Positions 22,899 through 37,824 are shown, counted from the stretch's first letter. The stretch: DNA of 38,489 nucleotides from Chloroflexota bacterium (GCA_025935655.1 JAICUV010000002.1:1-38489); one strand, 5' to 3'. Made by a program: numbers and translations. Notes: generated by a model not told the origin, from the sequence alone.

Positions 22899-23330
22899 TC
22901 AGGCGCCCTGGGCCCGGGCGACGGCCGCGAGGAGCCGTGGCGTCTCGTCGTGGGCGATCGCGACGATGCGCGTCCCCTCGGCCAGGTCGGCGAGCGTGTA
23001 CGAGGCGGTGAAGTCGTAGACGGGGTCGTGGGCGGCCGTGTGCAGCGACCAGGTCACCGTCGCGTGCGCGATCCCCGGCGTCACCTCCGCGACGTCGAGG
23101 CGCGTGATGGTCGCCCCCGCCACGCCCAGCAGGCGGTACGCGCCGACGATGCGCTGGACCTGGGGCGCCCACGCGTCGGCGGTCGGGACGGACCTGACGG
23201 TGACCCCGTCACCCTCGCCGACGACCTGGACCGGGAACGCATAGCAGCCGGCGATCGCCGCCACGTCGAAGGACTCGAAGGTACGGCGATAGGCGTCGAT
23301 GAACGCCTCGGCGGCGGCGCGGTCAGGCAT
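22899..23330 (-). CDS. NTF2-like / SnoaL-like fold protein
   Basis: About 143 aa, with the N-terminal AAEAFIDAYRRTFESFD helix pattern and alternating beta segments typical of NTF2-like cones. ATG 23330 lies 2 nt after the upstream gene's stop. Confidence 0.5.
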   Translation of the reverse strand: MPDRAAAEAFIDAYRRTFESFDVAAIAGCYAFPVQVVGEGDGVTVRSVPTADAWAPQVQRIVGAYRLLGVAGATITRLDVAEVTPGIAHATVTWSLHTAAHDPVYDFTASYTLADLAEGTRIVAIAHDETPRLLAAVARAQGA

Positions 23331-24813
23331 CGGGCTCCTCGCTGCTGGTGCGGGCACGGCGGGTCGGCTTGCGGCCGGCCATCCACGCGGCGCGCTCGTC
23401 GTCGGACAGGCTGCCCCAGTCGTCCGGGGCGGCGTCCGGGTCCAGCGGTTCCTGGGGCGGGCGCAGGTCCTCCGGGACGTGGATCAGGTTGAGGCGCAGC
23501 CGGTACCAGGCGTAGGCGCGTCCGCGCATCGCGGTCTCGATGACGTCCGCGGGCTCCAGGTGTGCGGCGGCCTCCGGGTGGCGGGCCTTCCAGCGCTCCA
23601 GCCCCTCGTAGACCTCCGCCCTGGTCGGGGCGCGCCCGAGCTCGATCACCGGGATGCTCGACTTCCGGCGACCCGTGGGCGACGGCCGAGATCCCTCCCA
23701 CTCGGTGGTCAGGCCGGCGTTGGGGTCACCCGCGGCGACGGCGGCCGCACGTTGCTCCGCGACCTCGGGCGGGGGACCGCCGTCCTTGCCCCTGCCGGCG
23801 TATTCGTCCGGCTTGCGGCGCATCCTGGAGGGCTGGACGCGGGGCGGCTCGCCCTCCTGCTTGGCGTAGTTCGGGGGCCACGGGGCGTCGCCCTCGCCCT
23901 CCGCCTCGTGGCGCGCCGAGAGCTCCAGGAGGGCGTCGAGCGTGCCCACCGCCTCGTCGATGCCCGCCCCCGCGTCGCCCCGCTGCGCGTAGATCGCGGG
24001 CACGGTGGCGAGGGTGAAGTCCTCCATGACGACGTGCGGCACCTCGTCCCAGCGGAGCGGGAACGAGACCCGGGCGTCTGGCGTGGGCCGCACCGAGTAC
24101 GCGGAGGCGACGGTCCGGTCCTTCGCGTTCTGGTTGTAGTCGAGGAACACGCCGTGGCGCTCCTCCTTCCACCACTTGGAGGTCGCGATCGCCGGCGCCC
24201 GCCGTTCCACGTCCCGGGCGAGGGCCAGCGCGGCGCGACGGACCTGCGGGTACGTCCAGCGGGGCTCGATCCGGACGTTGACGTGGATTCCCCGCGAGCC
24301 GGAGGTCTTGGGCCAGCCGGTCAGGCCCACGGCCACGAGCGACTCCTGGACGACGAGCGCGACCTCGCGCACCTGCGACCAGGGCACGCCCGGGACCGGG
24401 TCCAGGTCCACGCGCAGCTCGTCCGGGTGGTCGAGGTCCTCCGCGCGGACCGGGTGCGGGTTGAGGTCCATGCAGCCCAGGTTCGCGATCCAGGCGAGGC
24501 CCGCGGCTTCGTCCACGACGAGCTCGTCGGCGGTCCGGCCGCTCGGGAACGTCAGCGTGGCGACGCGCATCCAGTCCGGCTTGTTGTCCGGCGCCCGCTT
24601 CTGGAAGAACGGCTCCTTCTCGGCGCCGTCCACGAAGCGCTTGAGCGCCATCGGCCGGCCGCGCACGCCGGTGAGGGCGCCGTCGGCGACCGCGAGGAAG
24701 TACCGGACGAGGTCGAGCTTCGTGTGCCCGGCGCGCGGGAAGTAGACCTTGTCAGGGTTGCTGATCGACACCTCGCGGCCGCCGATCTCGAGGATCTCCT
24801 TGCGGGACGGCAT
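23323..24813 (-). CDS. stand-alone NHEJ primase-polymerase (LigD PolDom-like, AEP superfamily) with long C-terminal extension
   Basis: Motifs SNPDKVYFP, FFQKRAP, DLDP, WPKTSGSRGIHV, FLDYNQNA and SAYSVRP, then PWPPNYAKQEGEPPRVQPSR, then about 150 more residues; 496 aa. Confidence 0.85.
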   Translation of the reverse strand: MPSRKEILEIGGREVSISNPDKVYFPRAGHTKLDLVRYFLAVADGALTGVRGRPMALKRFVDGAEKEPFFQKRAPDNKPDWMRVATLTFPSGRTADELVVDEAAGLAWIANLGCMDLNPHPVRAEDLDHPDELRVDLDPVPGVPWSQVREVALVVQESLVAVGLTGWPKTSGSRGIHVNVRIEPRWTYPQVRRAALALARDVERRAPAIATSKWWKEERHGVFLDYNQNAKDRTVASAYSVRPTPDARVSFPLRWDEVPHVVMEDFTLATVPAIYAQRGDAGAGIDEAVGTLDALLELSARHEAEGEGDAPWPPNYAKQEGEPPRVQPSRMRRKPDEYAGRGKDGGPPPEVAEQRAAAVAAGDPNAGLTTEWEGSRPSPTGRRKSSIPVIELGRAPTRAEVYEGLERWKARHPEAAAHLEPADVIETAMRGRAYAWYRLRLNLIHVPEDLRPPQEPLDPDAAPDDWGSLSDDERAAWMAGRKPTRRARTSSEEPDA

Positions 24814-24830
24814 GTGCGGATCCTAGGCGG

Positions 24831-27800
24831 TCACGTCCGGACGATGTGCAGCCGGCCGCGGCGCTCGAACCGGTAGCCCGGCCGCCCGCTGAAGTACTCG
24901 TGCACGGCCGTGCGGCAGCCGGACCACGTGTCGTAGTCGTCGACCACGATCCGACCGCCGATCGCCAGCAGGGGCGCGATTCGGGTCAGACAGGTCATCG
25001 TGGAGGCATACCAGTCGCCGTCGAGGTGCGCGAAGGCGACGGGCTCGTCCAGGACGAGCGTGTCCTCGAACCGCCCCTGGACGAGGTCCACGTTGCTGGG
25101 CCCGACCGGCAGCCCGTGACGCACGAAGGAGTCGGTCACCTCCGCCAGGAGCTCGTCGCGGTAGCCGTAGTAGGTGTCTCCGCCGACGCCCTGGGAGCGA
25201 CCGGCGACGATCGTGGCGTAGCGCTTGTGGACGTCCTCGCCGTCCTTCTCCGACGGCGGCGGGATCATGCCGAACACGTCGTAGACCTTCATCCGCCGCC
25301 CGGGTGCCTTGGCGGCCGCGAGCGTGATCGCCGAGCCGCCACGCGCCGTTCCTGCTTCGATCACGAGGCCCTCGATCCCGTCCGCCTCGACGGCCTGGAC
25401 CATCGCGGCGAGCGTCCGAAGGCTCGTGACGTCGAGATAGCTCAAGTGCTCGGCGCGGACGCCCGCGATGACGCGCTCGATCTCGGGCCCGAGGGGGCTC
25501 GTCACCGGCCCGAGCTCGACCGGGTTGTGAAGCGAGCCCGCCGGTCCGATCCGCTCGTCGCCGCCCGCGGGCGCATCGCCCGCCCGCTCGCGCAACCGCG
25601 CCGCGACCTCGCGCCACCGCGTCTGCTCGAAGGTGAGCGCCGCGTCCCAGGGCTTGCCGAAGGACGCCCAGTGGATGAGCTTCGGCTCCGCCACGTCCTC
25701 CAGCACCGGCATCACGTTCCACCGGGGGTCCACGAGGCCGCGGCGCGGGCCGAGGTAGCCCAGCATCGTGTCCTGGTCGTGGAGCCCGTATCGCTCCACC
25801 CAGCCGAGATAGGTCGACGTGAATCGGTCGCGGCGCATGCGGTCGAGATCCATCACGAGGACGCCGGCGTTGAGCGCAGGGTGCCCGAAGCCGTGTGCGT
25901 GGCTCACCCGGCGGCGGAGCTCCGTCGCCAGGGGCTCCTCGAGACCGCGGCCGGCGCGCTGCCACTGGCTCGCCTCGCTCACGTTCGAGTCGCGTGCCGC
26001 GACGGGGAAGCCACCGAGATCTGTCGCCGCGAGCTCGCACACGTCGCCGAACATCAGCGTGTCGACGTCCAGGTACACGACCCGCGCCACCTCGGTCAGG
26101 ATGTCCGGCAGCAGCAGCCGGTCCATGGTCGAGACGGTGATGTGAGCGGGGACGCGTCGCGGCCTGCCGTCCGTCCCGCCGAAGCTGATGGTGTCGCACG
26201 GCAGGAACGTGATCGGCAGCGACGGGAAGGCGCCCGCGAGCCACGACTGGTACGCATCGCTGAGTCCCCGCGAGAGCACCCACAGCCGCAGCGGTCCGGA
26301 CGCGTTCGCGACGATGGACTCGATGAGCACCGCAGCCGGCGTCGTCAGGTTCTGGTCGTAGGCGAGGACGACATCGGTCACGGCGCCCGGGTCGACGGCG
26401 TCATGGGGCCCGAAGCGGCGCCTGGCGGCCGCGGTCACCGCCACGGCGGCCGCAACGTCGATCGTCGTGGGCTCGTCTTCGACGGGCTCCGCGAAACGCG
26501 CCTTCGCCTCCTCGACCCGGGCAGCCGTCAGCTCCCGCCACAGCTCGTACACCTCGGACGCCGTCGCGCCGCCGAGGATCCGCTCGAACACCGCGGCCGT
26601 GAGGTCGCGGATGCCCTCGCGCATCTCGTCGAGGCGGAGATCGCCCGGCTGCATGCCCGTCAGCCCCGCGAACCGCACGTCGCCGGGGTTCCGCGTCCGG
26701 AACTCCACCGGCACGCCGAGCGAGGTCAGCGGGAGGTACGCGTGGAGGCGGCCGGTCACGACCCGGTCGAGGTCGCGCTGATAGTCGGCGAGCGCTCGGT
26801 CCGCCGCGCGCAGGCCCTCCGCGGCGGTCAGGTAGCGGTACTCGTCCGACTGGTGCCCGTATGTCCGCACGGTCCGGGCGTTGCGGCCCGCGGCGCTCGG
26901 CGGCTGGTCGATGACGCCCACCGCGCCACCGCCGCGGTACGCCTCGGAGCGAGTCGGGAAGAGCGAGTCGACCGTCGACGTGAGACAGCCGCTGAAGAAC
27001 GCGTCGACGCCCGCGCCCAACAGGAGGAACACCGTCGTCCAGTCCCGGCAGCCGACCGGCCCGTGCGCGCGCAGGTACGCCAGCGCCGCGTCGCTGAGCA
27101 TGTCGAGCCGGTTGACGTGGAACGACAGGAACAGCGGCCGGATGGCCGGGTGGTAGGGGAAGTCGTACCGCAGGTCGAACAGCGAGTGCATGTGCCAGCC
27201 GAACGCGATCAGCCACGTTCCGTCCGGCACGTCGCGACCGGTGCTGAAGTCGCGGTCGACCGGGATGAGGTGCAGCGCGCCGCCGACGCCGGGGCGACGG
27301 AGGTCTGCCCTGACCCGACCCTGCAGCTCGGTCGCGACCTCCCCGAGGCCCCCCTCACCGGTGATCGTGACGTCGACGAGGCGCGCGATGTTGCCGACGA
27401 GGGACAGGGTCTGGATGTAGTCGCCGAGGTTCCCCGAGGTGAGCACGTGATCCGGGCTCTTGTAGTCGAGGATGCCGATGGGGATCGACCCGGGCGGCAC
27501 CTGCGCCGGCGCAGGCTCCAGCCATCGTTCGATGAGCGCCAGCGCGTAGCGACGCCGATCGTCGAGCTCGAGCGCCGGCCGTTTGCGGAGCTCCTCGACG
27601 AGCGCTGCGGTCGGTGCCCGGTGGCCCATGGCGAGGAACCGGCCGGCCAGGTCGACGGCCACCGCGGCATCCATCGATCGATCCGGCACCGACACCGCCA
27701 TCGCGACGGCGAGCCCGTCGTCGGTGCCGTCGGCCAGCGCCGCGTCCACGGCCTCCACCGGCACGGTCGCGGCGAGCGTGGCGGGGTCGAGGTCGCGGAA

Positions 27801-28313
27801 TCGCGCCCACGCGCGGTGGAGCTGGCGACGGCGGTGATGGAGGACCCCGTGGCCGATTGCCGAGGCGGTTGCGCCGCCCGGCAGTCGGCCGACGCCCTCG
27901 GCGAGCGACCAGGCGGCGTGGTGCTCGACCTGCTCGGCGAGTGCCGCGACCGCCGCTGCCGTCGCCCGCTCGAGCGACTCGCCGCGCTCGATCGCGTGGG
28001 CGAACACGGCCTCGGCATGGTGTCGGGCGGCGGTCTTGCGGATCCCGGGTCCGGCCGCTGCGTCGGGAGTCGCGGTTCCGTCGCGTCCGAGCACGGCCGT
28101 CGCCAGGCGCGTCCACTCGCCGACGTACCACGAGTCGGGGCGTCGGGCGCCGGATCCGCCGCGGGCCGCACGGCTGCCGCCGTCCCCTCGGCCCACGGTC
28201 GCGCCCAGCGTCGAGATCGCCTTCACGCGGACCCGGCGCAGCGCGCCGCCGCGCGTCTCCGCCCGGGACAGGTCGGCCAGGAGGTGGCGGATCCTGACCC
28301 GGCGTCCGCTCAT
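24831..28313 (-). CDS. four-module fusion protein: unknown helical N-domain + pyruvyl-transferase-like + GT8 glycosyltransferase + TylF/MycF-type O-methyltransferase
   Basis: A single frame with no stop.
- Pyruvyl-transferase-like motifs: GNLGDY (27417-27434), GCRDW...FFSGCLTST, VVTGRLHAYLPLTSLGVPV.
- GT8 motifs: VLAYDQN, DxD in YLDVDT (26061-26069), NAGVLVMDL, HWASFGKPW.
- TylF motifs: IEAGTARGGSA and HLDGDWYAST (25008-25022).
Start set at ATG 28313, because the ORF-track start overlaps the divergent DGPF gene. Confidence 0.75.
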   Translation of the reverse strand: MSGRRVRIRHLLADLSRAETRGGALRRVRVKAISTLGATVGRGDGGSRAARGGSGARRPDSWYVGEWTRLATAVLGRDGTATPDAAAGPGIRKTAARHHAEAVFAHAIERGESLERATAAAVAALAEQVEHHAAWSLAEGVGRLPGGATASAIGHGVLHHRRRQLHRAWARFRDLDPATLAATVPVEAVDAALADGTDDGLAVAMAVSVPDRSMDAAVAVDLAGRFLAMGHRAPTAALVEELRKRPALELDDRRRYALALIERWLEPAPAQVPPGSIPIGILDYKSPDHVLTSGNLGDYIQTLSLVGNIARLVDVTITGEGGLGEVATELQGRVRADLRRPGVGGALHLIPVDRDFSTGRDVPDGTWLIAFGWHMHSLFDLRYDFPYHPAIRPLFLSFHVNRLDMLSDAALAYLRAHGPVGCRDWTTVFLLLGAGVDAFFSGCLTSTVDSLFPTRSEAYRGGGAVGVIDQPPSAAGRNARTVRTYGHQSDEYRYLTAAEGLRAADRALADYQRDLDRVVTGRLHAYLPLTSLGVPVEFRTRNPGDVRFAGLTGMQPGDLRLDEMREGIRDLTAAVFERILGGATASEVYELWRELTAARVEEAKARFAEPVEDEPTTIDVAAAVAVTAAARRRFGPHDAVDPGAVTDVVLAYDQNLTTPAAVLIESIVANASGPLRLWVLSRGLSDAYQSWLAGAFPSLPITFLPCDTISFGGTDGRPRRVPAHITVSTMDRLLLPDILTEVARVVYLDVDTLMFGDVCELAATDLGGFPVAARDSNVSEASQWQRAGRGLEEPLATELRRRVSHAHGFGHPALNAGVLVMDLDRMRRDRFTSTYLGWVERYGLHDQDTMLGYLGPRRGLVDPRWNVMPVLEDVAEPKLIHWASFGKPWDAALTFEQTRWREVAARLRERAGDAPAGGDERIGPAGSLHNPVELGPVTSPLGPEIERVIAGVRAEHLSYLDVTSLRTLAAMVQAVEADGIEGLVIEAGTARGGSAITLAAAKAPGRRMKVYDVFGMIPPPSEKDGEDVHKRYATIVAGRSQGVGGDTYYGYRDELLAEVTDSFVRHGLPVGPSNVDLVQGRFEDTLVLDEPVAFAHLDGDWYASTMTCLTRIAPLLAIGGRIVVDDYDTWSGCRTAVHEYFSGRPGYRFERRGRLHIVRT

Positions 28314-28500
28314 CGCGTGGGCCGCCGCCGGGGCGTGGGATCGGCCTGCCGTGCCGAACAACGCGATCCCGTCGGAAGACGCACCTGCCACCTCTGCTTG
28401 GGCCGCGGCGATCCGACGGCTCGGTCGGAGAGTGTACCGGTGGGTCCGTGACGGCTGCGTCAGCGCCGCCCGGGATCGTGCGCCGCCGCGCCGCGGACGA

Positions 28501-28527
28501 TGTCGATTCCGGCGGTCCGCGTTCGTC
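28501..28527 (+). promoter_or_regulatory. ECF-type promoter candidate TGTCGA-N17-CGTC upstream of the DGPF-sigma operon
   Basis: TGTCGA at 28501-28506 and CGTC at 28524-28527, about 55 nt before ATG 28581. From memory, TGTCGA / CGTC is the motif reported for ECF42 autoregulated promoters. A TACGAT hexamer at 28530-28535 is an alternative -10. Confidence 0.4.
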
Positions 28528-28580
28528 GCTACGATGCACGGGCCGGACGGGCCGGCCTGCTGGACCGGACAGGAGACCGC

Positions 28581-28928
28581 ATGCGTTACCTGCTGCTGAT
28601 CGCGAGCGAGCCGCCCGCCACCCCGCCGAGCGACGCGGACTGGGCCGCGATGCTCGAGCAGTACAACGAGTTCGGGGCGTGGGCCGGCGAGAAGGGCTGG
28701 GTGCTGGGGGGCGAGGCCCTGGAGGACGTGTCCACGGCAACGACCGTGAGCATCCGGGACGGGCAGCGGATCGTGACCGACGGGCCGTTCGCCGAGACGA
28801 AGGAGCACCTGGGCGGCTACTACGTCATCGACGTCCCCAGCCTCGACGACGCGATCGAGACGGCGTTCCGGATCCCGGGTGCGTCCATCGGCAGGATCGA
28901 GATCCGCCCGATCAAGGAGTTCGGCTGA
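28581..28928 (+). CDS. YCII-related / DGPF domain protein
   Basis: DGPFAETKEHLGGYYVIDV signature; about 115 aa. AGGAG SD lies 6 nt upstream of ATG 28581. Confidence 0.85.
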   Translation: MRYLLLIASEPPATPPSDADWAAMLEQYNEFGAWAGEKGWVLGGEALEDVSTATTVSIRDGQRIVTDGPFAETKEHLGGYYVIDVPSLDDAIETAFRIPGASIGRIEIRPIKEFG

Positions 28929-30205
28929 GCGCAGCCCACGGCGAGGTCGTCGCGCGGGTCTTCCGCGAGGAGCACGGACGGGCCATCGCCACGCTGATCC
29001 GGGTCCTCGGCGACTTCGACCTCGCCGAGGAGGCGGTCGCGGACGCGTACGTCACGGCGCTCGAGCGCTGGCCGGCCGACGGCGTCCCGAACAACCCGGG
29101 GGCATGGATCACGACGACCGCTCGCAACCGTGCCATCGACCGGGTCCGCCGCGACCGCGTCTTCGCGGGCAAGGCGGCACTCGTGGCGCGTGACGCGGCG
29201 TTCGACGCCTCGGCCCGCCGGGGCGCGCTGCTGGCGGCGGTGGAGGACGAGATGCACCCGATCCCGGACGACCAGCTGCGCCTGATCTTCACCTGCTGTC
29301 ACCCGGCGCTCGCGCCCGAGACCGCCGTGGCGCTGACGCTGCGGACGCTGGGCGGGCTGACGACGCCGGAGATCGCCCGGGCGTTCCTCGTGCCGGAGCC
29401 GACGCTCGCCCAGCGGCTCGTGCGGGCGAAGAAGAAGATCCGCGACGCCGGGATCGCGTACGAGGTCCCCACCGGGGACCGCCTGGCCGACCGGCTGGAC
29501 GCCGTGCTGCGCGTGCTCTATCTCGTGTTCAACGAGGGCTACGACGCCTCGTCCGGGGACGCGCTCATCCGGCGCGACCTGTGTGCCGAGGCGATCCGCC
29601 TCGCCCGGGTCGTGGCGACGCTGATGCCGTCCGAGCCCGAGGCGCTGGGCCTGCTCGCCCTGCTGCTCCTCACCGACGCGCGGCGGCCGGCACGCGAGGG
29701 CCCGTCGGGCGAGCTCGTGCGGCTCGAGGACCAGGATCGTGGGCGGTGGTCGCGGCCGGCGATCGTCGAGGGTGCCGCGCTCGTCGAGCGTGCGCTGCGC
29801 ATGGGTCGCGTCGGGCCGTACCAGCTCCAGGCGGCGATCGCGGCCGTCCACGACGAGGCGCCGACGGCCGCGGCGACGGACTGGGCGCAGATCCTCGGGC
29901 TGTACGAGGTGCTCCTGCGCGTCGCCCCGTCGCCCGTCGTCGCGCTCAATCGCGCGGTCGCGGTCGCCGAGGTGTCGGGTCCGGCCGCCGGGCTGGCCGC
30001 GGTCGACGCCATGGCCGGCGACCCGTCGCTCGACGGCTACCGGTACTTCCACTCGGCGCGCGCGGATCTCCTGCGGCGCCTGGGGCGCTGGGCCGAGGCC
30101 GCGGACGCCTACGGGCGCGCGCTCGAGCTGGCCGAGAACGGCCCCGAGCGAGCGTTCCTCGAGCGCCGGATCGCGGAGGTCCGCGCTCGCGGGACCGCGG
30201 GCTGA
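28925..30205 (+). CDS. ECF sigma factor with long C-terminal TPR-like extension (ECF42-type)
   Basis: Region 2: FREEHGRAIATLIRVLGDFDLAEEAVADAYVTALERW...NPGAWITTTARNRAIDRVRR. Region 4: TPEIARAFLVPEPTLAQRLVRAKKKI. A helical extension of about 200 aa follows. The 5' end is provisional: the only start-like codon is CTG 28925, overlapping the DGPF stop. Confidence 0.8.
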   Translation: MSAAHGEVVARVFREEHGRAIATLIRVLGDFDLAEEAVADAYVTALERWPADGVPNNPGAWITTTARNRAIDRVRRDRVFAGKAALVARDAAFDASARRGALLAAVEDEMHPIPDDQLRLIFTCCHPALAPETAVALTLRTLGGLTTPEIARAFLVPEPTLAQRLVRAKKKIRDAGIAYEVPTGDRLADRLDAVLRVLYLVFNEGYDASSGDALIRRDLCAEAIRLARVVATLMPSEPEALGLLALLLLTDARRPAREGPSGELVRLEDQDRGRWSRPAIVEGAALVERALRMGRVGPYQLQAAIAAVHDEAPTAAATDWAQILGLYEVLLRVAPSPVVALNRAVAVAEVSGPAAGLAAVDAMAGDPSLDGYRYFHSARADLLRRLGRWAEAADAYGRALELAENGPERAFLERRIAEVRARGTAG

Positions 30206-30449: not shown

Positions 30450-30836
30450 TCAGCCCGCCTGCGGGACCTCCGCCATGAGCCCGATGTTGTTGTCGTCCGG
30501 GTCCTTCGTGAACGCCATCCACAGCTCGTTCGTGCCGTCGCGATGGACGACGTGCGCCGGGTGCGTGAACACGACCCCGCGGCCCTCGAGCGCCGTGACG
30601 GCGGCCGCGATGTCCGGGACGCGGAAGTACAGCGTCGCGCGGCCGCGGAAGTCGGGCGCCTCGGGCTCGGCGAGGTAGAGGCGGACGCCGTCCGCGTCGA
30701 AGAACGCCATGTGCGGGAACGCGAACAGGAAGCGCATCCCCAGCGCGTCGCGATAGAAGGCCGTCGCCCGCTCCGCGTCGCGGACGGGGATCATGACCTG
30801 GCCGATCGTGGCCAGGCCGAACGTCGTCTCGGTCAT
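30450..30836 (-). CDS. VOC-family protein (glyoxalase / bleomycin-resistance / dioxygenase fold)
   Basis: 128 aa; IGQVMIPVRDAERATAFYRDALGM and the paired beta-alpha-beta-beta-beta pattern. Its ATG overlaps the marR stop (ATGA). Confidence 0.8.
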   Translation of the reverse strand: MTETTFGLATIGQVMIPVRDAERATAFYRDALGMRFLFAFPHMAFFDADGVRLYLAEPEAPDFRGRATLYFRVPDIAAAVTALEGRGVVFTHPAHVVHRDGTNELWMAFTKDPDDNNIGLMAEVPQAG

Positions 30837-31297
30837 CGGGAAGCCTCCGGTTCGAGGTGTTCGAGGACGTCGAGGGCGCGCTCGAGCGCGTCCAGCTGGT
30901 CGGGGGTGAGCGTGTCGAGGTCCGCGGCGAGGCGCTCGATGCGGCGGGCCCGGCCGCGCTCCATGAGCCGGCGTCCGTCCGGGGTCACCGTCAGGCGGAC
31001 CTGGCGGCGATCGCCCTCGACGGCGGTCCGGCCGACGAGCCCGTCCCGGACGAGGGCGTCCACGATCCGGGTCATCGTGGGCGTCGCGACGCCCTCCCGG
31101 CGGGCGAGCGCGCCGAGCGACTGCGGCCCGCCATAGACGAGCACGCTCAGGGCGGACAGGCGGGCGCCCGTGACGCCGTCCGCGCCGTCGTCGCGCGAGA
31201 TCCGCCGCAGCAGGTGGATCGCGGCCGAGTTGAGCCGGTTGGCGACCTCGACGTGGCGCTCCGCCGGCAGGTCCTCGGGGAGGGGACGACGCGGCAC
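30833..31297 (-). CDS. MarR-family transcriptional regulator
   Basis: Winged-helix segment LSALSVLVYGGPQSLGALARREGVATPTMTRIVDALVRDGLVGR...DRRQVRLTVTPDG; GTG start at 31297. Confidence 0.85.
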   Translation of the reverse strand: MPRRPLPEDLPAERHVEVANRLNSAAIHLLRRISRDDGADGVTGARLSALSVLVYGGPQSLGALARREGVATPTMTRIVDALVRDGLVGRTAVEGDRRQVRLTVTPDGRRLMERGRARRIERLAADLDTLTPDQLDALERALDVLEHLEPEASR

Positions 31298-31383: not shown

Positions 31384-33744
<2,361 letters not shown>

Positions 33745-33776
33745 ACCGGCGGCGTTCGTCGTGCCGGCGCTGACGT

Positions 33777-33794
33777 GCGGCTGCACGCAGCCGC
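33777..33794. terminator. short GC hairpin between the convergent uvrA-like and transporter genes
   Basis: gcggctgc-ac-gcagccgc inverted repeat in the 84-bp gap between the two stop codons. No U-tract. Confidence 0.3.
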
Positions 33795-33828
33795 CGCCCG
33801 GCTTCACGCCGGCGCCATGGCCGGTTCG

Positions 33829-35181
33829 CTACCCCACCGACACCCCGAGCGCGCCGAGCAGCGTCACCCCGAGCAGGATCGCGTTGAGCGCGACGACGAG
33901 CGACACCGCCCCCCAGGCGAGCACGTTGCCCCAGCGCCCGTTGACGTAGGCCCCCATCAGCCGCTTGTCGTTCACCAGCAGCACGAGGAACACGAGCACG
34001 ATCGGGAGGAGCAGGCCCTGCAGGTTCTGGGACCCGACGATGATCCCGACGAGGGATCCCTCGGGCACGAGGAGCACCACGATCGCGCCCAGCGCCAGCA
34101 CGAACGTGTAGATCCCGAAGAACACGGGCGCGTCGCTGAACCGCTTGCCCACGCCGCTCTCCCAGCCGAAGGCCTCGCAGATCACGAACGCCGTGGAGAT
34201 CGGCATGATCGTCGCCGCCAGCACCGAGGCCCCGAACAGCCCGATCCCGAACAGCACCTCGGCGAAGGGGCCGGCGACCGGTTCCAGCGCCTTGGCGGCG
34301 TCCGCGGCCGACGTGATCGTGAGCGCCGCCCCGCCGGCCACGACCGCGGCCGCGGTGGCCACCACGATGAACACCGCGATGACGTTGGTCCAGACGGACC
34401 CGACGACCGCGTCTGCCTGCTCGAGCCGCAGCTCCTCCTCGCCGATGCCCTTCTCCGCCACCGCGCTCTGCAGGTAGAACTGCATGTACGGGGTGATGGT
34501 CGTGCCGACGACGGCGACGAGCAGCAGCAGCGTCGCGGGGTCGAGCGGCAGCGTCGGGGTCACGAACGCCTTGAACACGGGCGTCCAGTCGTCGGTCGCC
34601 ATGATCGCGGCGATGGGGTAGGCGAGGAACACCAGCATCACGAGCAGGAACACGCGCTCCACGATCCGGTACGACCCGAACAGCACCAGGCTCCAGATCG
34701 CGACAGCCACCACCGGGACCGTGACGATCTTGGGGATGCCGAAGATGTCCAGCGCCGCCGCCGCGCCGGCCATGTTCGCGATCGTGTTGGCGACGTTCGC
34801 CAGCAGCAGCACGCCCATCGCGAACACGGTCCAGCGGACCCCGAACCGCTCCCGGATCAGGTCGGACAGGCCCTGCCCCGTGATGACGCCGAGCCGCGCC
34901 ACCATCTCCTGGACGATCGCGAGGATCAGGATCGTCAGCGGGAAGATCCAGAGCATCGTGAGGCCCGTCTCGGCGCCCAGCACGGAATAGGTCGTGAGGC
35001 CACCGGCGTCGTTGCCGGCGACGCCCGCGATGATCCCGGGTCCCATGACGGCGAGGAACGCGAGCAGCCCGCGGCGGCGGAAGCGGCCGCGGAGACGCGG
35101 GACGGGAACGTCCGGGAGGCGCGAGGCGACCCGGCCGCGCTGCGCGACCACCATGTCCCGCAGGCCCCGCCCGATGGTCAC
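33829..35181 (-). CDS. NRAMP-fold cation transporter with non-canonical metal site (NRMT-like candidate, not a typical MntH)
   Basis: NRAMP signatures QEMVARLGVITGQGLSDLIRERF and LFGIGLFGASVLAA, with 11-12 TM helices. TM1 reads NDAGG (34999-35013) instead of DPGN. TM6 reads GTTITPY (34486-34506) instead of GAxxMPH. GTG 35181 overlaps the upstream stop (GTGA); ATG 35154 is the alternative. Confidence 0.8.
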   Translation of the reverse strand: MTIGRGLRDMVVAQRGRVASRLPDVPVPRLRGRFRRRGLLAFLAVMGPGIIAGVAGNDAGGLTTYSVLGAETGLTMLWIFPLTILILAIVQEMVARLGVITGQGLSDLIRERFGVRWTVFAMGVLLLANVANTIANMAGAAAALDIFGIPKIVTVPVVAVAIWSLVLFGSYRIVERVFLLVMLVFLAYPIAAIMATDDWTPVFKAFVTPTLPLDPATLLLLVAVVGTTITPYMQFYLQSAVAEKGIGEEELRLEQADAVVGSVWTNVIAVFIVVATAAAVVAGGAALTITSAADAAKALEPVAGPFAEVLFGIGLFGASVLAATIMPISTAFVICEAFGWESGVGKRFSDAPVFFGIYTFVLALGAIVVLLVPEGSLVGIIVGSQNLQGLLLPIVLVFLVLLVNDKRLMGAYVNGRWGNVLAWGAVSLVVALNAILLGVTLLGALGVSVG

Positions 35182-36488
35182 CCGCGGCCCTCGCCGGCCG
35201 CGGCCGGCGTCTTCGGCTCGTCGTCGCGGTCCGCGCGCGCGAACACGCGCGGCAGGCGTCGCCGCCACGCGCTGGGCGCGACGGTGTCGATGGCGTCGTC
35301 CACGGTGACGATCCCCACGAGCAGCCCCTCGTCGTCGACGACCGGCACCGCGAGCAGGTTGTAGTGGGCGATGGTCTCCGCCACGGACTCGGCGGGCTCG
35401 AGAACCCCGACCGCGACCGGGCCGTCGATCATCACGTCCGCGACCGCGGACTCCGGCCGGGCGACGATGAGGTCGCGCAGCGACAGGACGCCCACCAGGC
35501 GCCCGTCGTCGTCGGTGACGTAGACGTAATAGATCGTCTCGGCGTCGGGCTCGAGCTCGCGCAGCTTCTCGATCGTCTGGGCCGCCGTGAGCTCCGCCGG
35601 GACGGCGACGAACTCCGTGGTCATGAGGCCGCCCGCCGAGTCCTCCGGGAACGCCAGCAGGTCACGGACCTCGTCCGCCTCGTCGCTCTCCATGAGGGCG
35701 AGGATCTCGTCGCGCGAGCGGTCGGACAGGTCGGCCACGAGGTCCGCGGCGTCGTCCGGGCTCATCTCCTCGAGGATGTCGGCGGCCCGGCCCGGCTCGA
35801 GGTCCTCCAGGACCTCCACCTGGGTGTCCGGCTCCATCTCCTCGACCACGTCGGCCAGCGCCTCGTCGTCCAGCGTGGCGAGCACGCCCAGCCGGTCGCG
35901 CGGCGTCAGCTCCTCGATGATCGCGGCGAGGTCCGCCGGGTGGAGCTCCGCGAGCTTCGCGTGCGGGACGCGCAGGCGGACGGAGGCGATCGTGGAGTCG
36001 AGCGGGTCCACGTCCTCCCAGTCGATGTACCGCTCGGGCACGCCGGCGCGGACGTTGCGCGCGATCGTCCGGAACGCGCCCTCCAGCCCGAGCCGCCGGA
36101 ACAGGCCCGCCGCCCCGACGTCGACGGCGACCACCCGCAGGCGACCCTCGACCTCGTCGAGGCTGACGTCGTTGACCCGGATGACCTTGCGCCCCTCGAT
36201 GTCGACGATCTGCTTGTCCAGCAGGTCGGCCTTGAGCAGGATCTCGTCCTGGCGCTGCCGGAACTTGCCGATGTCGATGGTCCGGACGCGCAGCAGCGCG
36301 CCGGTCTCGTCGAGGGTCCGGACGTTGTGCCAGGGCAGGAAGATGTTCCGGCGGTCGGTGCGCGCGACGAGGCCGGTGACCGGCGGGTATCGGTCACCGA
36401 TGGCCACGATGAGGTCGGCGATCGTGCCGAGCGGCTCGCCGGACGGGTCGCGTACCGGCAGGCCGATGCACTGGCTGAGGAAGCGCAT
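35178..36488 (-). CDS. soluble PRC-barrel + MgtE N-domain + CBS-pair protein (MgtE cytoplasmic module without pore)
   Basis: PRC-like N-terminus (IGLPVRDPSGEPLGTIADLIV; IVDIEGRKVIRVNDVSL). MgtE_N acidic helices (LHPADLAAIIEEL...EEMEPDTQVEVLEDLEPGRAADILEEMSPDDAADLVADL). Two CBS motifs (GGLMTTEFVAVP...GRLVGVLSLRDLI; LLAVPVVDDEGLLVGIVTVDDAI). No hydrophobic helix after the CBS pair. Confidence 0.82.
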   Translation of the reverse strand: MRFLSQCIGLPVRDPSGEPLGTIADLIVAIGDRYPPVTGLVARTDRRNIFLPWHNVRTLDETGALLRVRTIDIGKFRQRQDEILLKADLLDKQIVDIEGRKVIRVNDVSLDEVEGRLRVVAVDVGAAGLFRRLGLEGAFRTIARNVRAGVPERYIDWEDVDPLDSTIASVRLRVPHAKLAELHPADLAAIIEELTPRDRLGVLATLDDEALADVVEEMEPDTQVEVLEDLEPGRAADILEEMSPDDAADLVADLSDRSRDEILALMESDEADEVRDLLAFPEDSAGGLMTTEFVAVPAELTAAQTIEKLRELEPDAETIYYVYVTDDDGRLVGVLSLRDLIVARPESAVADVMIDGPVAVGVLEPAESVAETIAHYNLLAVPVVDDEGLLVGIVTVDDAIDTVAPSAWRRRLPRVFARADRDDEPKTPAAAGEGRG

Positions 36489-36680
36489 GGCTGGCCACCT
36501 GGTGTGGGCGGGTCGAACCCGCCGCGGTGGCTGGACCCGGGCGCAGCCGGGCCCGTCAGCGAACGGGCAGGACCCTGTGGCTGCCGGCAGGACGGCCGGC
36601 GGAACTAGGTCCGGTCTCCACGATGGGAGCAATCCTCGTGCGGTGCTGAACGCCCCGAAGCCGTGTCCGGAACGGGGGCA
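36489..36680 (-). promoter_or_regulatory. long structured 5' leader with an SD-sequestering helix (candidate cis-regulatory RNA)
   Basis: About 190 nt lie between the predicted TSS and ATG 36488. GCCACC (RNA copy of 36531-36526) can pair with GGUGGC (36499-36494), which overlaps the AGGUGG SD. It encloses the hairpin GGCGGG-uucga-CCCGCC (36523-36507). Further GC hairpins lie upstream, for example GCCGGC-cguccu-GCCGGC. Confidence 0.4.
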
Positions 36681-36686
36681 GATCCG

Positions 36687-36715
36687 ACTGTATGCCCGTG
36701 CCGCGAGGTGGTCAA
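36687..36715 (-). promoter_or_regulatory. sigma-70-type promoter TTGACC-N17-TACAGT
   Basis: On the minus strand, TTGACC is at 36715-36710 and TACAGT at 36692-36687, with a 17-nt spacer. It points at the MgtE_N/CBS gene about 200 nt downstream. Confidence 0.55.
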
Positions 36716-36796
36716 CCGTGCTCGGCGGGTGCGCGCGGGACCGGGTTGCGCACGCGCGGCACGCGGCGCACAATGGGCTCTGCACATGTGCCCGGC

Positions 36797-36814
36797 GGTG
36801 AGCATTTGCTCACC
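36797..36814. promoter_or_regulatory. perfect 8-2-8 palindrome GGTGAGCA-TT-TGCTCACC (operator candidate)
   Basis: It lies 17 nt upstream of the SorC-family regulator ATG (36832), in the AT-richest patch of the intergenic region. Confidence 0.5.
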
Positions 36815-36831
36815 TTGAGCCGTAGGGGATC

Positions 36832-37824
36832 ATGCCGTCGCTCGACGATCTCGGCCATGACGAGTTCGAGCTCCTCGCCCGCGTCGCCCACCGCTACTAC
36901 GCGGACGGCCTGACGCAGGAGGCCCTCGCGCGTGAGTTCGGGCTGTCGCGACCCAAGGTGCAGCGGCTCCTGGACAGGGCGCGCGCGGCGGGCGTCGTGG
37001 ACATCCGGATCGCCACGCCGCCGTGGCTGCACCTCGACCTCGAGCGGGCGCTCCGCGAGCGGTTCGGGCTGGCCGAGGCCATCGTCGCCCCCGCCCGGTC
37101 CGACGCCGACGCCCAGCGGGCCGAGGTGGCCCGCGCCGCGGCCGCCTACCTCGAGCGGCGCCTCGACGACGGGGCGGTGGTCGCCGTCAGCCATGGACGC
37201 GACACCGGCGAGGTCCCGCGGTTCTTCGCGCCCCGGCGTCGCGTGGCCGCGACGTTCGTGAGCGCCATGGGCGGCTCGCCGCTCGTCGACTCGCCCACCA
37301 ACCCGAACGAGATCGTCCGTCGGCTCGCCGACCGCTGCGGCGGCCAGTCCGTGGGGCTGTACGCCCCCGCGTCCGTGGAGAGCGCGCGGATGCGCGCCCA
37401 GCTCGTGCGCGAGCCCGCGGTCGCGGAGACGCTCGGGATCGCCGCCCGCGCGTCGATCGCGCTCGTCGGCATCGGCGGCACGGACGACGCGTGCACGATG
37501 GTCCGCAGCGGCAGCGTCTCGCTGGACGAGATCCGCCGGCTGCGCGACGCCGGGGCGGTGGGCGACGTCCTGGGCAACTACGTGGATGCCGACGGCGGGC
37601 TCGTGGAGTCGCCCGAGACGGGGCGGCTGGTGAGCCTGTCGCTCGACGAGCTCCATGCGATCGGCACGGTCGTGGTCGTGGTCAGCGAGGCCGAGAAGCC
37701 GCTCGCGATCCTGGGCGTCCTGCGGACCGGCGTCGTCGACGTGCTCGTCATCGACGAGGGCAATGCGCGCTTCCTCGTGGAACCCGCGCGCGAAGCAACG
37801 CTGCGTCCCATGACGGAGGTGTGA
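36832..37824 (+). CDS. SorC/DeoR-type sugar-binding transcriptional regulator
   Basis: N-terminal HTH ARVAHRYYADGLTQEALAREFGLSRPKVQRLLDRARAAGVVDIRI, followed by a sugar-phosphate-binding domain (ALVGIGGT, GDVLGNYVDADG). Confidence 0.85.
   Translation: MPSLDDLGHDEFELLARVAHRYYADGLTQEALAREFGLSRPKVQRLLDRARAAGVVDIRIATPPWLHLDLERALRERFGLAEAIVAPARSDADAQRAEVARAAAAYLERRLDDGAVVAVSHGRDTGEVPRFFAPRRRVAATFVSAMGGSPLVDSPTNPNEIVRRLADRCGGQSVGLYAPASVESARMRAQLVREPAVAETLGIAARASIALVGIGGTDDACTMVRSGSVSLDEIRRLRDAGAVGDVLGNYVDADGGLVESPETGRLVSLSLDELHAIGTVVVVVSEAEKPLAILGVLRTGVVDVLVIDEGNARFLVEPAREATLRPMTEV

Follow-up and report, generated by a model that had tools for sequence, protein, structure and literature searches.

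A pore-less MgtE-type protein encoded with an NRMT-clade transporter in a Chloroflexota operon

The NRAMP-related Mg2+ transporters (NRMTs) represent the fourth class of bacterial Mg2+ importer. Here we describe an operon in which the gene of an NRMT-clade protein follows that of a soluble relative of the Mg2+ channel MgtE. The operon lies on the minus strand of a 38,489-nucleotide (nt) stretch of DNA from a Chloroflexota bacterium (GCA_025935655.1 JAICUV010000002.1:1-38489), which is referred to below as the window (G+C ~73%). Two established systems bear on the soluble protein, hereafter the sensor or partner. In MgtE, millimolar Mg2+ holds the N and CBS domains together in a stabilised, compact state. 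The KtrA/TrkA gating rings on KtrB/TrkH are separately encoded, co-transcribed cytoplasmic ligand-binding regulators, for which the complex has been demonstrated. The concept would be alike for the partner, though the folds are unrelated (MgtE_N/CBS versus RCK) and the complex with an NRMT is hypothetical.

The closest described loci are those in which this transporter class was recognised. NrmT was found through M-box riboswitches (Shin et al., PLoS Genet 2014, PMC4072509). Most NrmT genes lie directly downstream of a homologue of the MgtE cytoplasmic domain, in what were termed "mgtE-nramp operons", and cytoplasmic feedback regulation or a chaperone role was proposed for the MgtE-like protein (PMC4072509). 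The window locus shares with these operons the gene order, the strand, the MgtE-cytoplasmic homologue upstream and the NRAMP-related Mg2+ transporter downstream. It differs in its high-GC Chloroflexota-type organism and in having, instead of an M-box, a different leader that contains a uORF (upstream open reading frame). It is a Chloroflexota member of the 2014 operon type, and both the pairing and the feedback hypothesis are already published. An earlier note on this DNA, prepared from the sequence alone, had implied that the partnership of a sensor with an NRAMP-fold transporter was new; that implication is overturned by the 2014 report.

The double PRC-barrel module of the partner, the loss of its plug helix and its retained Mg2+ sites are unmentioned in the text of Shin et al. 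2014. The paper on the NRMT of Eggerthella lenta (EleNRMT; PMC8806188) is silent on the partner, and no later paper discussing it was found in the literature searched. What the present analysis adds is an account of which Mg2+ sites are kept and which are lost, the apparent descent of the partner from PRC-bearing MgtE proteins, its presence in the EleNRMT lineage, and two-way linkage counts that include orphan genes. With modest confidence, we lean towards the view that the partner is an Mg2+-dependent regulatory subunit that acts in trans on an uncoupled Mg2+/Mn2+ importer.

Operon layout and the NRMT-clade transporter

At this locus, the leader, the sensor gene and the transporter gene form one operon, in that order. 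The two genes and their junction are as follows.

35178..36488, minus strand: gene of a soluble PRC-PRC-MgtE_N-CBS-CBS protein, the MgtE-derived sensor partner, 436 amino acids (Pfam domains, homologues)
33829..35181, minus strand: gene of an NRMT-clade, NRAMP-fold transporter, 450 amino acids (PF01566, EleNRMT match)
35178..35181, minus strand: GTGA start/stop overlap of the sensor TGA with the transporter GTG (read directly)

The sensor gene extends from an ATG at 36488 to the TGA at 35180-35178 (436 codons), and the transporter gene from the GTG at 35181-35179 to its end at 33829 (450 codons). Mechanical open reading frames (ORFs) of both genes reach farther upstream. The shorter starts were adopted because 436-residue homologues align at 100% coverage, because an identical 450-residue gene call is present in the protein collection (P0121), and because the overlap is recurrent: a matching 4-nt NTGA overlap is found in eight related loci (L001, L002, L010, L012, L013, L043, L074 and L077). 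The earlier note had described the two-ORF layout on the minus strand and the GTGA overlap at these positions, and both are confirmed by ORF reading and by direct inspection of the junction.

Pfam assigns the transporter to the Nramp family (PF01566, E=6.8e-86), with profile positions 2-356 of 357 covered. EleNRMT (7qia) is its best solved relative, with an end-to-end alignment of 372 bits (E=4.8e-110) and 47% identity over the alignment. Other bacterial NRAMP/MntH structures score 48-102 bits (E=1e-24 to 5e-28), and the plant aluminium transporter (NRAT) scores 41.8 bits. The metal-site residues were read from an alignment of the window transporter with EleNRMT and DraNramp, and those of transmembrane helices 1 and 6 (TM1 and TM6) fall in two motifs.

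34999..35019, minus strand: TM1 metal-site motif A-G-N-D-A-G-G, residues 55-61 (D58 kept, G61 for the NRAMP Asn)
34483..34506, minus strand: TM6 metal-site motif G-T-T-I-T-P-Y-M, residues 226-233 (from the alignment)

DraNramp residues D56, N59, A227, M230 and H232 correspond to D58, G61, T227, T230 and Y232 of the window transporter, and the EleNRMT equivalents of D58, G61, T227 and Q385 are D55, G58, T224 and Q379. The window transporter and EleNRMT (Eggerthella lenta; PDB 7qia, 7qic, 7qji, 7qjj; eLife 2022, PMC8806188) thus agree in fold and in the D/G/T/Q residues of the site, and both have lost the helix-6b histidines. They differ at four positions. At the NRAMP Met position, which is Met in DraNramp, the window has Thr230 and EleNRMT Ala227, and the family has both A and T. 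The two helix-6b histidine positions are occupied by Tyr232 and Leu237 in the window and by Trp229 and Asn234 in EleNRMT. The helix-3 position is Asn136 in the window, while Glu133 is kept in EleNRMT. EleNRMT was also studied without a partner. Among 79 related transporters, the signatures x-N-D-A-G-G and G-T-T-I-[A/T]-P-[W/Y]-M are present in all 79, and the exact TM1/TM6 variant of the window in 19. Across 79 loci the helix-3 position is E in 62, N in nine and D in eight; the N136 and T230 codons occupy 34774-34776 and 34492-34494, respectively.

The transporter therefore combines an NRAMP fold with a TM1 in which Asp is kept and Asn is replaced by Gly, and a TM6 with Thr for Ala and a small, non-sulphur residue for Met. 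The proton-pathway residues, whose loss is the mark of an NRMT in PMC8806188, are also missing, and by bit score NRMT, rather than MntH or NRAT, is nearest to the protein. Since EleNRMT is the best match and the site residues and signatures are shared, assignment to the NRMT clade of SLC11, with an altered metal site, stands at the sequence level. The NRAMP fold and NRMT-like site claimed previously are thus supported by the Pfam and EleNRMT matches, and the readings of TM1 as N-D-A-G-G and TM6 as G-T-T-I-T-P-Y, without the canonical Asn and Met ligands, agree with the alignment. For EleNRMT, no Mg2+ transport is detected after the T224A mutation, transport is severely reduced by D55A and Q379A, and T224, G58 and Q379 are functionally important; Ca2+ is no substrate, Mn2+ is transported besides Mg2+, and the protein, with its proton-pathway residues replaced, is not proton-coupled (PMC8806188). 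The window transporter would probably import Mg2+ (and Mn2+) without proton coupling as well.

The substrate range leads to a second reading of the pair, namely that it handles mainly Mn2+, or another divalent cation, and that the partner responds to that ion. EleNRMT carries Mn2+ as well as Mg2+ (PMC8806188), and the NRMT-like transporter of Acidobacterium capsulatum, whose gene has an MgtE-like neighbour and no M-box, gave full rescue of an Mn2+ defect and partial Mg2+ rescue (PMC4072509). The M-box was likewise not found at the window locus, where the transporter has Thr in place of the EleNRMT Ala at the Met position and Asn in place of Glu at helix 3. However, T227, at the position needed specifically for Mg2+ in EleNRMT, is invariant in 79/79 loci, an M-box governs the same operon type in Bacillota, and the conserved ligands of the partner are those of the MgtE Mg2+ sites. 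We consider it rather unlikely that the pair is devoted mainly to Mn2+.

The basic N-terminus of the transporter (R-L-R-G-R-F-R-G-R-R-G) was considered as a docking motif and rejected; it is confined to a Chloroflexota subgroup, in which the N-termini of sensor-less NRMTs are also basic.

The MgtE-derived partner

The partner is composed of three parts.

35964..36488, minus strand: N-terminal double PRC-barrel module, residues 1-175 (Pfam PRC)
35640..35945, minus strand: MgtE_N domain, residues 182-283 (Pfam; holds D213, D245 and D249)
35274..35633, minus strand: CBS pair, residues 286-405 (Pfam; holds N377, D398 and D401)

Pfam matches are obtained for PRC over two stretches (E=4e-10), for MgtE_N (PF03448) over residues 182-283 (E=2.9e-27) and for two CBS domains (PF00571, E=1.5e-19); together with Nramp in the transporter, all of the domain families named in the earlier note are matched. 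The protein contains no credible membrane helix, as the sole 19-residue hydropathy window above 1.6 falls in β-strands of CBS2, and Pfam finds no PF01769 match, so it is not an MgtE channel. Its characterisation as a protein with PRC segments, an MgtE_N domain and a CBS pair, and without a transmembrane helix, holds by both Pfam and hydropathy. The NCBIfam model of MgtE (TIGR00400) gives 201 bits, below its cut-off of 232.75, with a match confined to profile positions 24-253 of 450. Among solved structures, the cytosolic domain of Thermus thermophilus MgtE (TtMgtE; 2yvy, E=8.4e-47) matches best, and more than 7,900 homologues are found at E<=1e-10. Residues 176-285 are strongly acidic, with 35 D+E versus 7 K+R.

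The MgtE_N and CBS region of the sensor aligns with TtMgtE residues 22-255. Ligand conservation was evaluated over 65 family members aligned with TtMgtE, using the site assignments of PMC5882242.

Mg4 ligand, TtMgtE D91: D245 in the window; Asp in 58/65
Mg4 ligand, TtMgtE D247: D398 in the window; Asp in 59/65
Mg7 ligand, TtMgtE E59: D213 in the window; Asp or Glu in 61/65
TtMgtE D95: D249 in the window; Asp in 63/65
Mg5 ligand, TtMgtE D250: D401 in the window; Asp or Glu in 53/65
Mg5 ligand, TtMgtE D226: N377 in the window; Asn in 42/65, Asp in 13/65

Mg4, Mg5 and Mg7 drive closure of the MgtE channel (Maruyama et al. 2018, PMC5882242). Partner and channel (T. thermophilus MgtE; PDB 2yvx, 2zy9) have in common the N domain, the CBS pair and the ligands of Mg4, Mg7 and part of Mg5, and Mg2+-dependent clamping of N onto CBS is probably common to both. 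Unlike MgtE, the partner is devoid of the plug helix and of the five-helix pore domain, and it carries the extra N-terminal double PRC-barrel; it therefore forms no channel. The earlier note had taken it for the complete cytoplasmic part of MgtE. This is correct for the N domain and the CBS pair, but the protein ends at about TtMgtE residue 255 and the plug helix, with E258 and D259, is missing. The partner thus keeps most of the N/CBS clamp and not the element that passes clamp movement to the pore.

Absence of the plug helix, the gating route of MgtE, would also suit a partner that does not gate. It might act in the cytoplasm as a metal buffer or chaperone for the incoming ion, or else help in assembly or stability, and the chaperone option was raised by Shin et al. 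(PMC4072509). The whole sensor is very acidic (89 D+E, pI 4.36), and the transporters are active without it. Yet free Mg2+ is millimolar, which makes a chaperone hard to justify, and it is the interdomain clamp ligands that are specifically conserved, rather than general acidity. Constant length and architecture across phyla also suggest a conformational device, and we regard a non-gating role as improbable.

The CBS pair could, alternatively, report adenine nucleotide or energy status instead of, or together with, Mg2+, and tune uptake to it. CBS pairs often bind adenosine ligands, and ATP-bound MgtE structures (5x9g, 5x9h) are among the matches. TtMgtE R187 and D188, which we take to be the residues that contact ATP in MgtE, are kept as R/K in 59/65 and as D/E in 48/65 members. 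By contrast, F227, presumably a determinant of adenine binding, is Leu in 57/65. Nucleotide sensing, to which we give slightly less credence than to a buffer or chaperone, is compatible with Mg2+-dependent regulation and does not exclude it.

The origin of the partner was approached through its PRC module, which was searched alone against 1.84 billion cluster representatives. The 971 clusters (50% identity) that match at E<=1e-10 fall into two size classes, pore-less proteins of ~410-436 amino acids and full-length proteins of ~593-656 amino acids. The longer class has the arrangement PRC-PRC-MgtE_N-CBS followed by the MgtE pore domain PF01769 (P0270, P0271, P0298 and P0358), and these ~600-residue PRC-MgtE proteins are the closest pore-bearing relatives of the partner. 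No solved structure matches the PRC-PRC module in a profile search (profile positions 1-173). In two loci from Eubacteriales metagenome-assembled genomes (L068:1870-4014 and L070:1966-3975), the partner has an extra hydrophobic C-terminal tail of 205-211 amino acids, which in L068 gives a weak match to PF01769 (E=9.5e-4); each of the tailed partners is preceded by an M-box and followed by an NRMT gene. These two proteins may represent a stage between full-length PRC-MgtE and the pore-less form. Because full-length PRC-MgtE proteins exist and weak pore-like tails occur in these two loci, the best description of the partner, as far as sequence comparison goes, is that of a paralogue, without a pore, of an MgtE subfamily that bears PRC barrels.

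A truncated MgtE with a degenerate membrane tail in some loci could also be taken for a functionless, decaying remnant. The conservation data effectively refute this. The ratio of nonsynonymous to synonymous substitution rates (dN/dS) of the sensor gene is 0.17-0.19 against L001 and L002, partner length is uniform (411-425 amino acids) in at least 60 loci across many phyla, the PRC module is as widespread as described above, and the key ligands are conserved. Decay is thus a reading to which we attach almost no weight.

Linkage of the two genes and proposed regulation

Gene neighbourhoods were examined in both directions. An NRMT scan with one genome per species yielded no fewer than 593 loci of NRMT type, of which the best 80 were analysed, 76 of them with enough upstream DNA. 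These 80 loci come from Chloroflexota, Bacillota, Desulfobacterota-type lineages, Nitrospirota, Acidobacteriota, Armatimonadota, Planctomycetota and other groups. Directly upstream of the NRMT gene, and in the same orientation, 66/76 loci carry the partner (62 complete with both PRC barrels and four cut by a contig end); one further locus has a frameshifted upstream copy and two have the partner downstream. For the reverse scan, metagenomes were searched with the partner alignment. Among the 76 usable loci, an NRMT gene is immediately downstream of the partner in 63 and ~390 nt away in one more. Co-occurrence of the gene pair, proposed as a check in the earlier note, is therefore observed both ways. 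It extends to the lineage of the structurally characterised transporter, since relatives of EleNRMT (91-92% identical) have a 450-residue PRC/MgtE_N/CBS gene 3-4 nt upstream; one such cluster is named Paraeggerthella hongkongensis.

Both genes are under similar purifying selection, with dN/dS of 0.17-0.24. Furthermore, the pairwise distances of sensor and transporter correlate (Mantel r=0.66, a value reached by 0/2000 permutations). This co-divergence shows inheritance as a unit, not physical contact.

From these data, regulation of the transporter in trans by the partner is a reasonable hypothesis, and its link to Mg2+ comes from six Bacillota loci in which the operon as a whole stands behind an M-box, in line with PMC4072509. 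We propose that a PRC-bearing MgtE channel gave rise to the partner by loss of the pore, and that the partner would form a CBS-mediated cytoplasmic dimer. At high cytosolic Mg2+, the acidic N domain would bind the ion and clamp onto the CBS domain, compacting the protein. The compact partner would then bind the transporter and lower uptake. The feedback gate of MgtE would in this way have been transferred, as a subunit of its own, to another transporter, with the start/stop overlap keeping the two proteins in fixed proportion. As the plug helix is lost, the partner must signal differently from MgtE and the signal must reach the transporter by another route, for which the PRC barrels or a face of the CBS pair are candidate contact surfaces.

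Several observations weigh against this mechanism. The partner family stops at about TtMgtE residue 255, and the plug helix, E258 and D259 are thus missing. At the position of the Mg5 ligand D226, the window protein and 42/65 members have Asn, and in MgtE D226N belongs to the mutation with which the Mg5 site was disabled (PMC5882242). In the genome scan, 7/76 NRMT genes have no partner within 4 kb, and in the reverse scan 12/76 partner genes (~16%) have neither an NRMT gene within ~3 kb nor another metal transporter nearby. Shared inheritance alone can explain the co-divergence. No natural sensor-NRMT fusion is found among the 240 NRMT homologues listed, all of which contain PF01566 only. The AlphaFold2 model of the partner, computed from a shallow alignment of sequences at least 76% identical, is too poor for a fold search or for inferring an interface, with a mean predicted local distance difference test (pLDDT) score of 65.8, a predicted template modelling score of 0.39 and a second PRC barrel with pLDDT below 50. 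Finally, NRMTs work without the partner in Bacillus subtilis complementation (PMC4072509) and in proteoliposomes (PMC8806188), and co-expression of the A. capsulatum pair in Mg2+-transport-deficient B. subtilis gave no further rescue (PMC4072509). We infer that this last result weighs little against feedback regulation, because a negative-feedback brake is not expected to improve growth at limiting Mg2+.

Since NRMT is not proton-coupled (PMC8806188), uptake would follow the membrane potential and would need a brake. For this role, the conserved partner is the evident choice, and it has been omitted from functional and structural studies since 2014. The hypothesis of a brake is now directly testable, given a partner in the EleNRMT lineage, clamp ligands that are kept, a plug helix that is lost and the probable descent from PRC-MgtE. 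If it were confirmed, it would mean that a sensor built into a channel can be detached and put to use, as an independent regulatory subunit, on a transporter whose fold is unrelated.

The twelve orphan partner loci are L105, L110, L113, L119, L129, L132, L133, L135, L139, L143, L145 and L150. Seven of these (L110, L113, L129, L132, L133, L135 and L139) have in common a distinctive N-terminus, MLY[L/V/I]SQ... An alternative transporter beside the orphans was sought and rejected: the neighbours include AhpC/TSA, MFS and OpgC genes, none of them consistent. Upstream of the orphans, there is an MFS gene in L119 and a hydrophobic ORF in L145. A different arrangement occurs at L073:5199-5813, which encodes a stand-alone PRC-PRC protein of 205 amino acids (E=1e-19 versus the partner profile, positions 3-166). 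Its gene and the 3' end of an NRMT gene overlap, and no MgtE_N-CBS partner is encoded near this NRMT gene. The arrangement hints, if weakly, that it is through the PRC module that the partner is tied to the transporter.

The operon leader and neighbouring genes

The 343-nt region upstream of the sensor gene contains a promoter-like site followed by a leader.

36687..36715, minus strand: promoter-like site TTGACC-17 nt-TACAGT (consensus scan, 1 site versus 0.0 expected)
36489..36680, minus strand: conserved 5' operon leader, ~190 nt (putative 5' end placed from the promoter-like site)
36556..36621, minus strand: uORF with GUG start, 21 codons plus UGA, peptide METGPSSAGRPAGSHRVLPVR with GUG read as Met (alignment of leaders)
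36494..36531, minus strand: helix sequestering the Shine-Dalgarno sequence, GCCACC (36531-36526) with the sensor Shine-Dalgarno GGUGGC (36499-36494), enclosing a hairpin at 36521-36509

Both promoter hexamers are conserved upstream in related loci (A4, A5). The leader itself is conserved in blocks in L001 and L002, despite a synonymous divergence of the genes of ~0.5. When nhmmer and a covariance model of the 3' 157 nt of the leader (R1) were run over 1.18 Mb, the leader was found in 25 loci, each match ending at the sensor ATG, with no other significant match in that sequence. The loci are exclusively of Chloroflexota type (the window at 36486-36721, minus strand, L001-L003, L005-L007, L010, L011, L081, L082, L084-L087, L089, L091-L093, L097 and L167-L171). 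Because the upstream neighbour gene varies between them, a shared divergent promoter is no explanation for the conservation. The leader has no match in Rfam 15; as far as our searches show it is undescribed, and it is the most novel element at the locus.

The M-box (Rfam RF00380) was not found at E<=1 in window positions 33000-37500. It is also absent from the related Chloroflexota and Eggerthellaceae loci, even at permissive thresholds, and no other known RNA family was found upstream in the window or in these relatives. The M-box takes the same position before the same operon type in six Bacillota loci, where the Chloroflexota lineage has the leader instead. In Clostridium pascui (L029:3632-3797), an M-box stands directly before an NRMT gene without a partner, with two fluoride riboswitches farther upstream; control at the RNA level is thus possible without the protein partner.

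RNAalifold on a plain MAFFT alignment of the leaders returned only invariant helices and one covarying pair; for this reason, the further analysis relied on a structure set by hand and on a covariance model. In the model-fitted alignment, 94.6% of cells pair versus 89.8 ± 0.6% in shuffles, and double-sided changes occur in 10 pairs versus 3.9 ± 1.0; slid controls show 34-49% pairing. Thermodynamic stability is no better than that of shuffled sequence (z=-0.36) and is not used as evidence. Given this value, an alignment that was fitted to the structure and three helices that are invariant, the structural evidence is moderate. The helix that sequesters the Shine-Dalgarno sequence, the clearest of the leader, is present in the minimum free energy fold of the window leader and in most of 18 related leaders folded singly, all of which contain both strand sequences. 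Within it, 99.3% of cells pair, with changes from A-U to G-U and from C-G to U-G, and the inner hairpin (36521-36509) shows compensatory changes. For hairpin H5 of the leader, which has no column-by-column alignment, support comes from separate single-sequence folds only. A single conformation is supported, with the Shine-Dalgarno sequence sequestered, and alternative pairings are speculative.

The uORF is preceded by GGAGGA, a strong Shine-Dalgarno sequence, ~11 nt 5' of its GUG (GAGGA = 36637-36633). Its start column is invariant in 24/25 leaders, and 19 of these 24 have their first stop in frame at one and the same alignment column. The 24 uORFs have lengths of 21, 22, 23, 24, 25, 28, 29 or 32 codons and end in UGA (16), UAG (seven) or UAA (one); no comparable start/stop pattern is present in the other two frames of the leader. 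The peptides begin M-E-x-G-P-S/R and later contain V-R/L-P-x-x, and the ORF passes through two conserved helices. Length steps of three and the interchange of stop codons at one position are as expected of a translated ORF. The conserved start, stop and frame thus support translation of the uORF, albeit indirectly.

In enterobacteria, mgtA and corA are under the Mg2+-responsive control of short ORFs that contain proline and acidic residues (PMC11552253). The mgtL/mgtA and corL/corA leaders (PMC11552253) and the leader described here are alike in that a short proline/acidic ORF lies in a structured leader before an Mg2+ transporter gene. They differ in that there is no sequence relationship and that the visible output here is the helix sequestering the Shine-Dalgarno sequence, with no Rho-dependent terminator known for this leader. 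By analogy, it is a natural hypothesis that the uORF acts as an Mg2+-responsive attenuator. That this ~190-nt leader, with its uORF and its Shine-Dalgarno-sequestering helix, controls the sensor-NRMT operon in the Chloroflexota lineage is a tentative proposal, which we would rate as possible rather than probable. Should it hold, Mg2+ uptake would be controlled at two levels, synthesis by the leader and activity by the detached MgtE-type sensor, and the leader would be a control element of a new type in the metal homeostasis of a phylum that has received little study. If translation of the uORF responds to Mg2+, this would amount to a third way, independent of the others, of placing a transporter operon under Mg2+-dependent control, one that stands in for the M-box of Bacillota.

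The neighbouring genes of the operon encode a MarR-type regulator, a 786-residue ABC-type ATPase, a SorC-type regulator and a class II aldolase, with no evident link to metal transport. The ATPase (31384-33744, plus strand) has two nucleotide-binding regions and a zinc-finger-like CxxC segment, and appears to be UvrA-like. Its gene is divergent from that of the MarR-family regulator (30833-31297, minus strand) and converges on the 3' end of the transporter gene. Farther away, a 1406-codon open frame (23326-29051, minus strand) carries glycosyltransferase family 8 and TylF-type methyltransferase domains and adjoins a gene with a LigD primase-polymerase domain.

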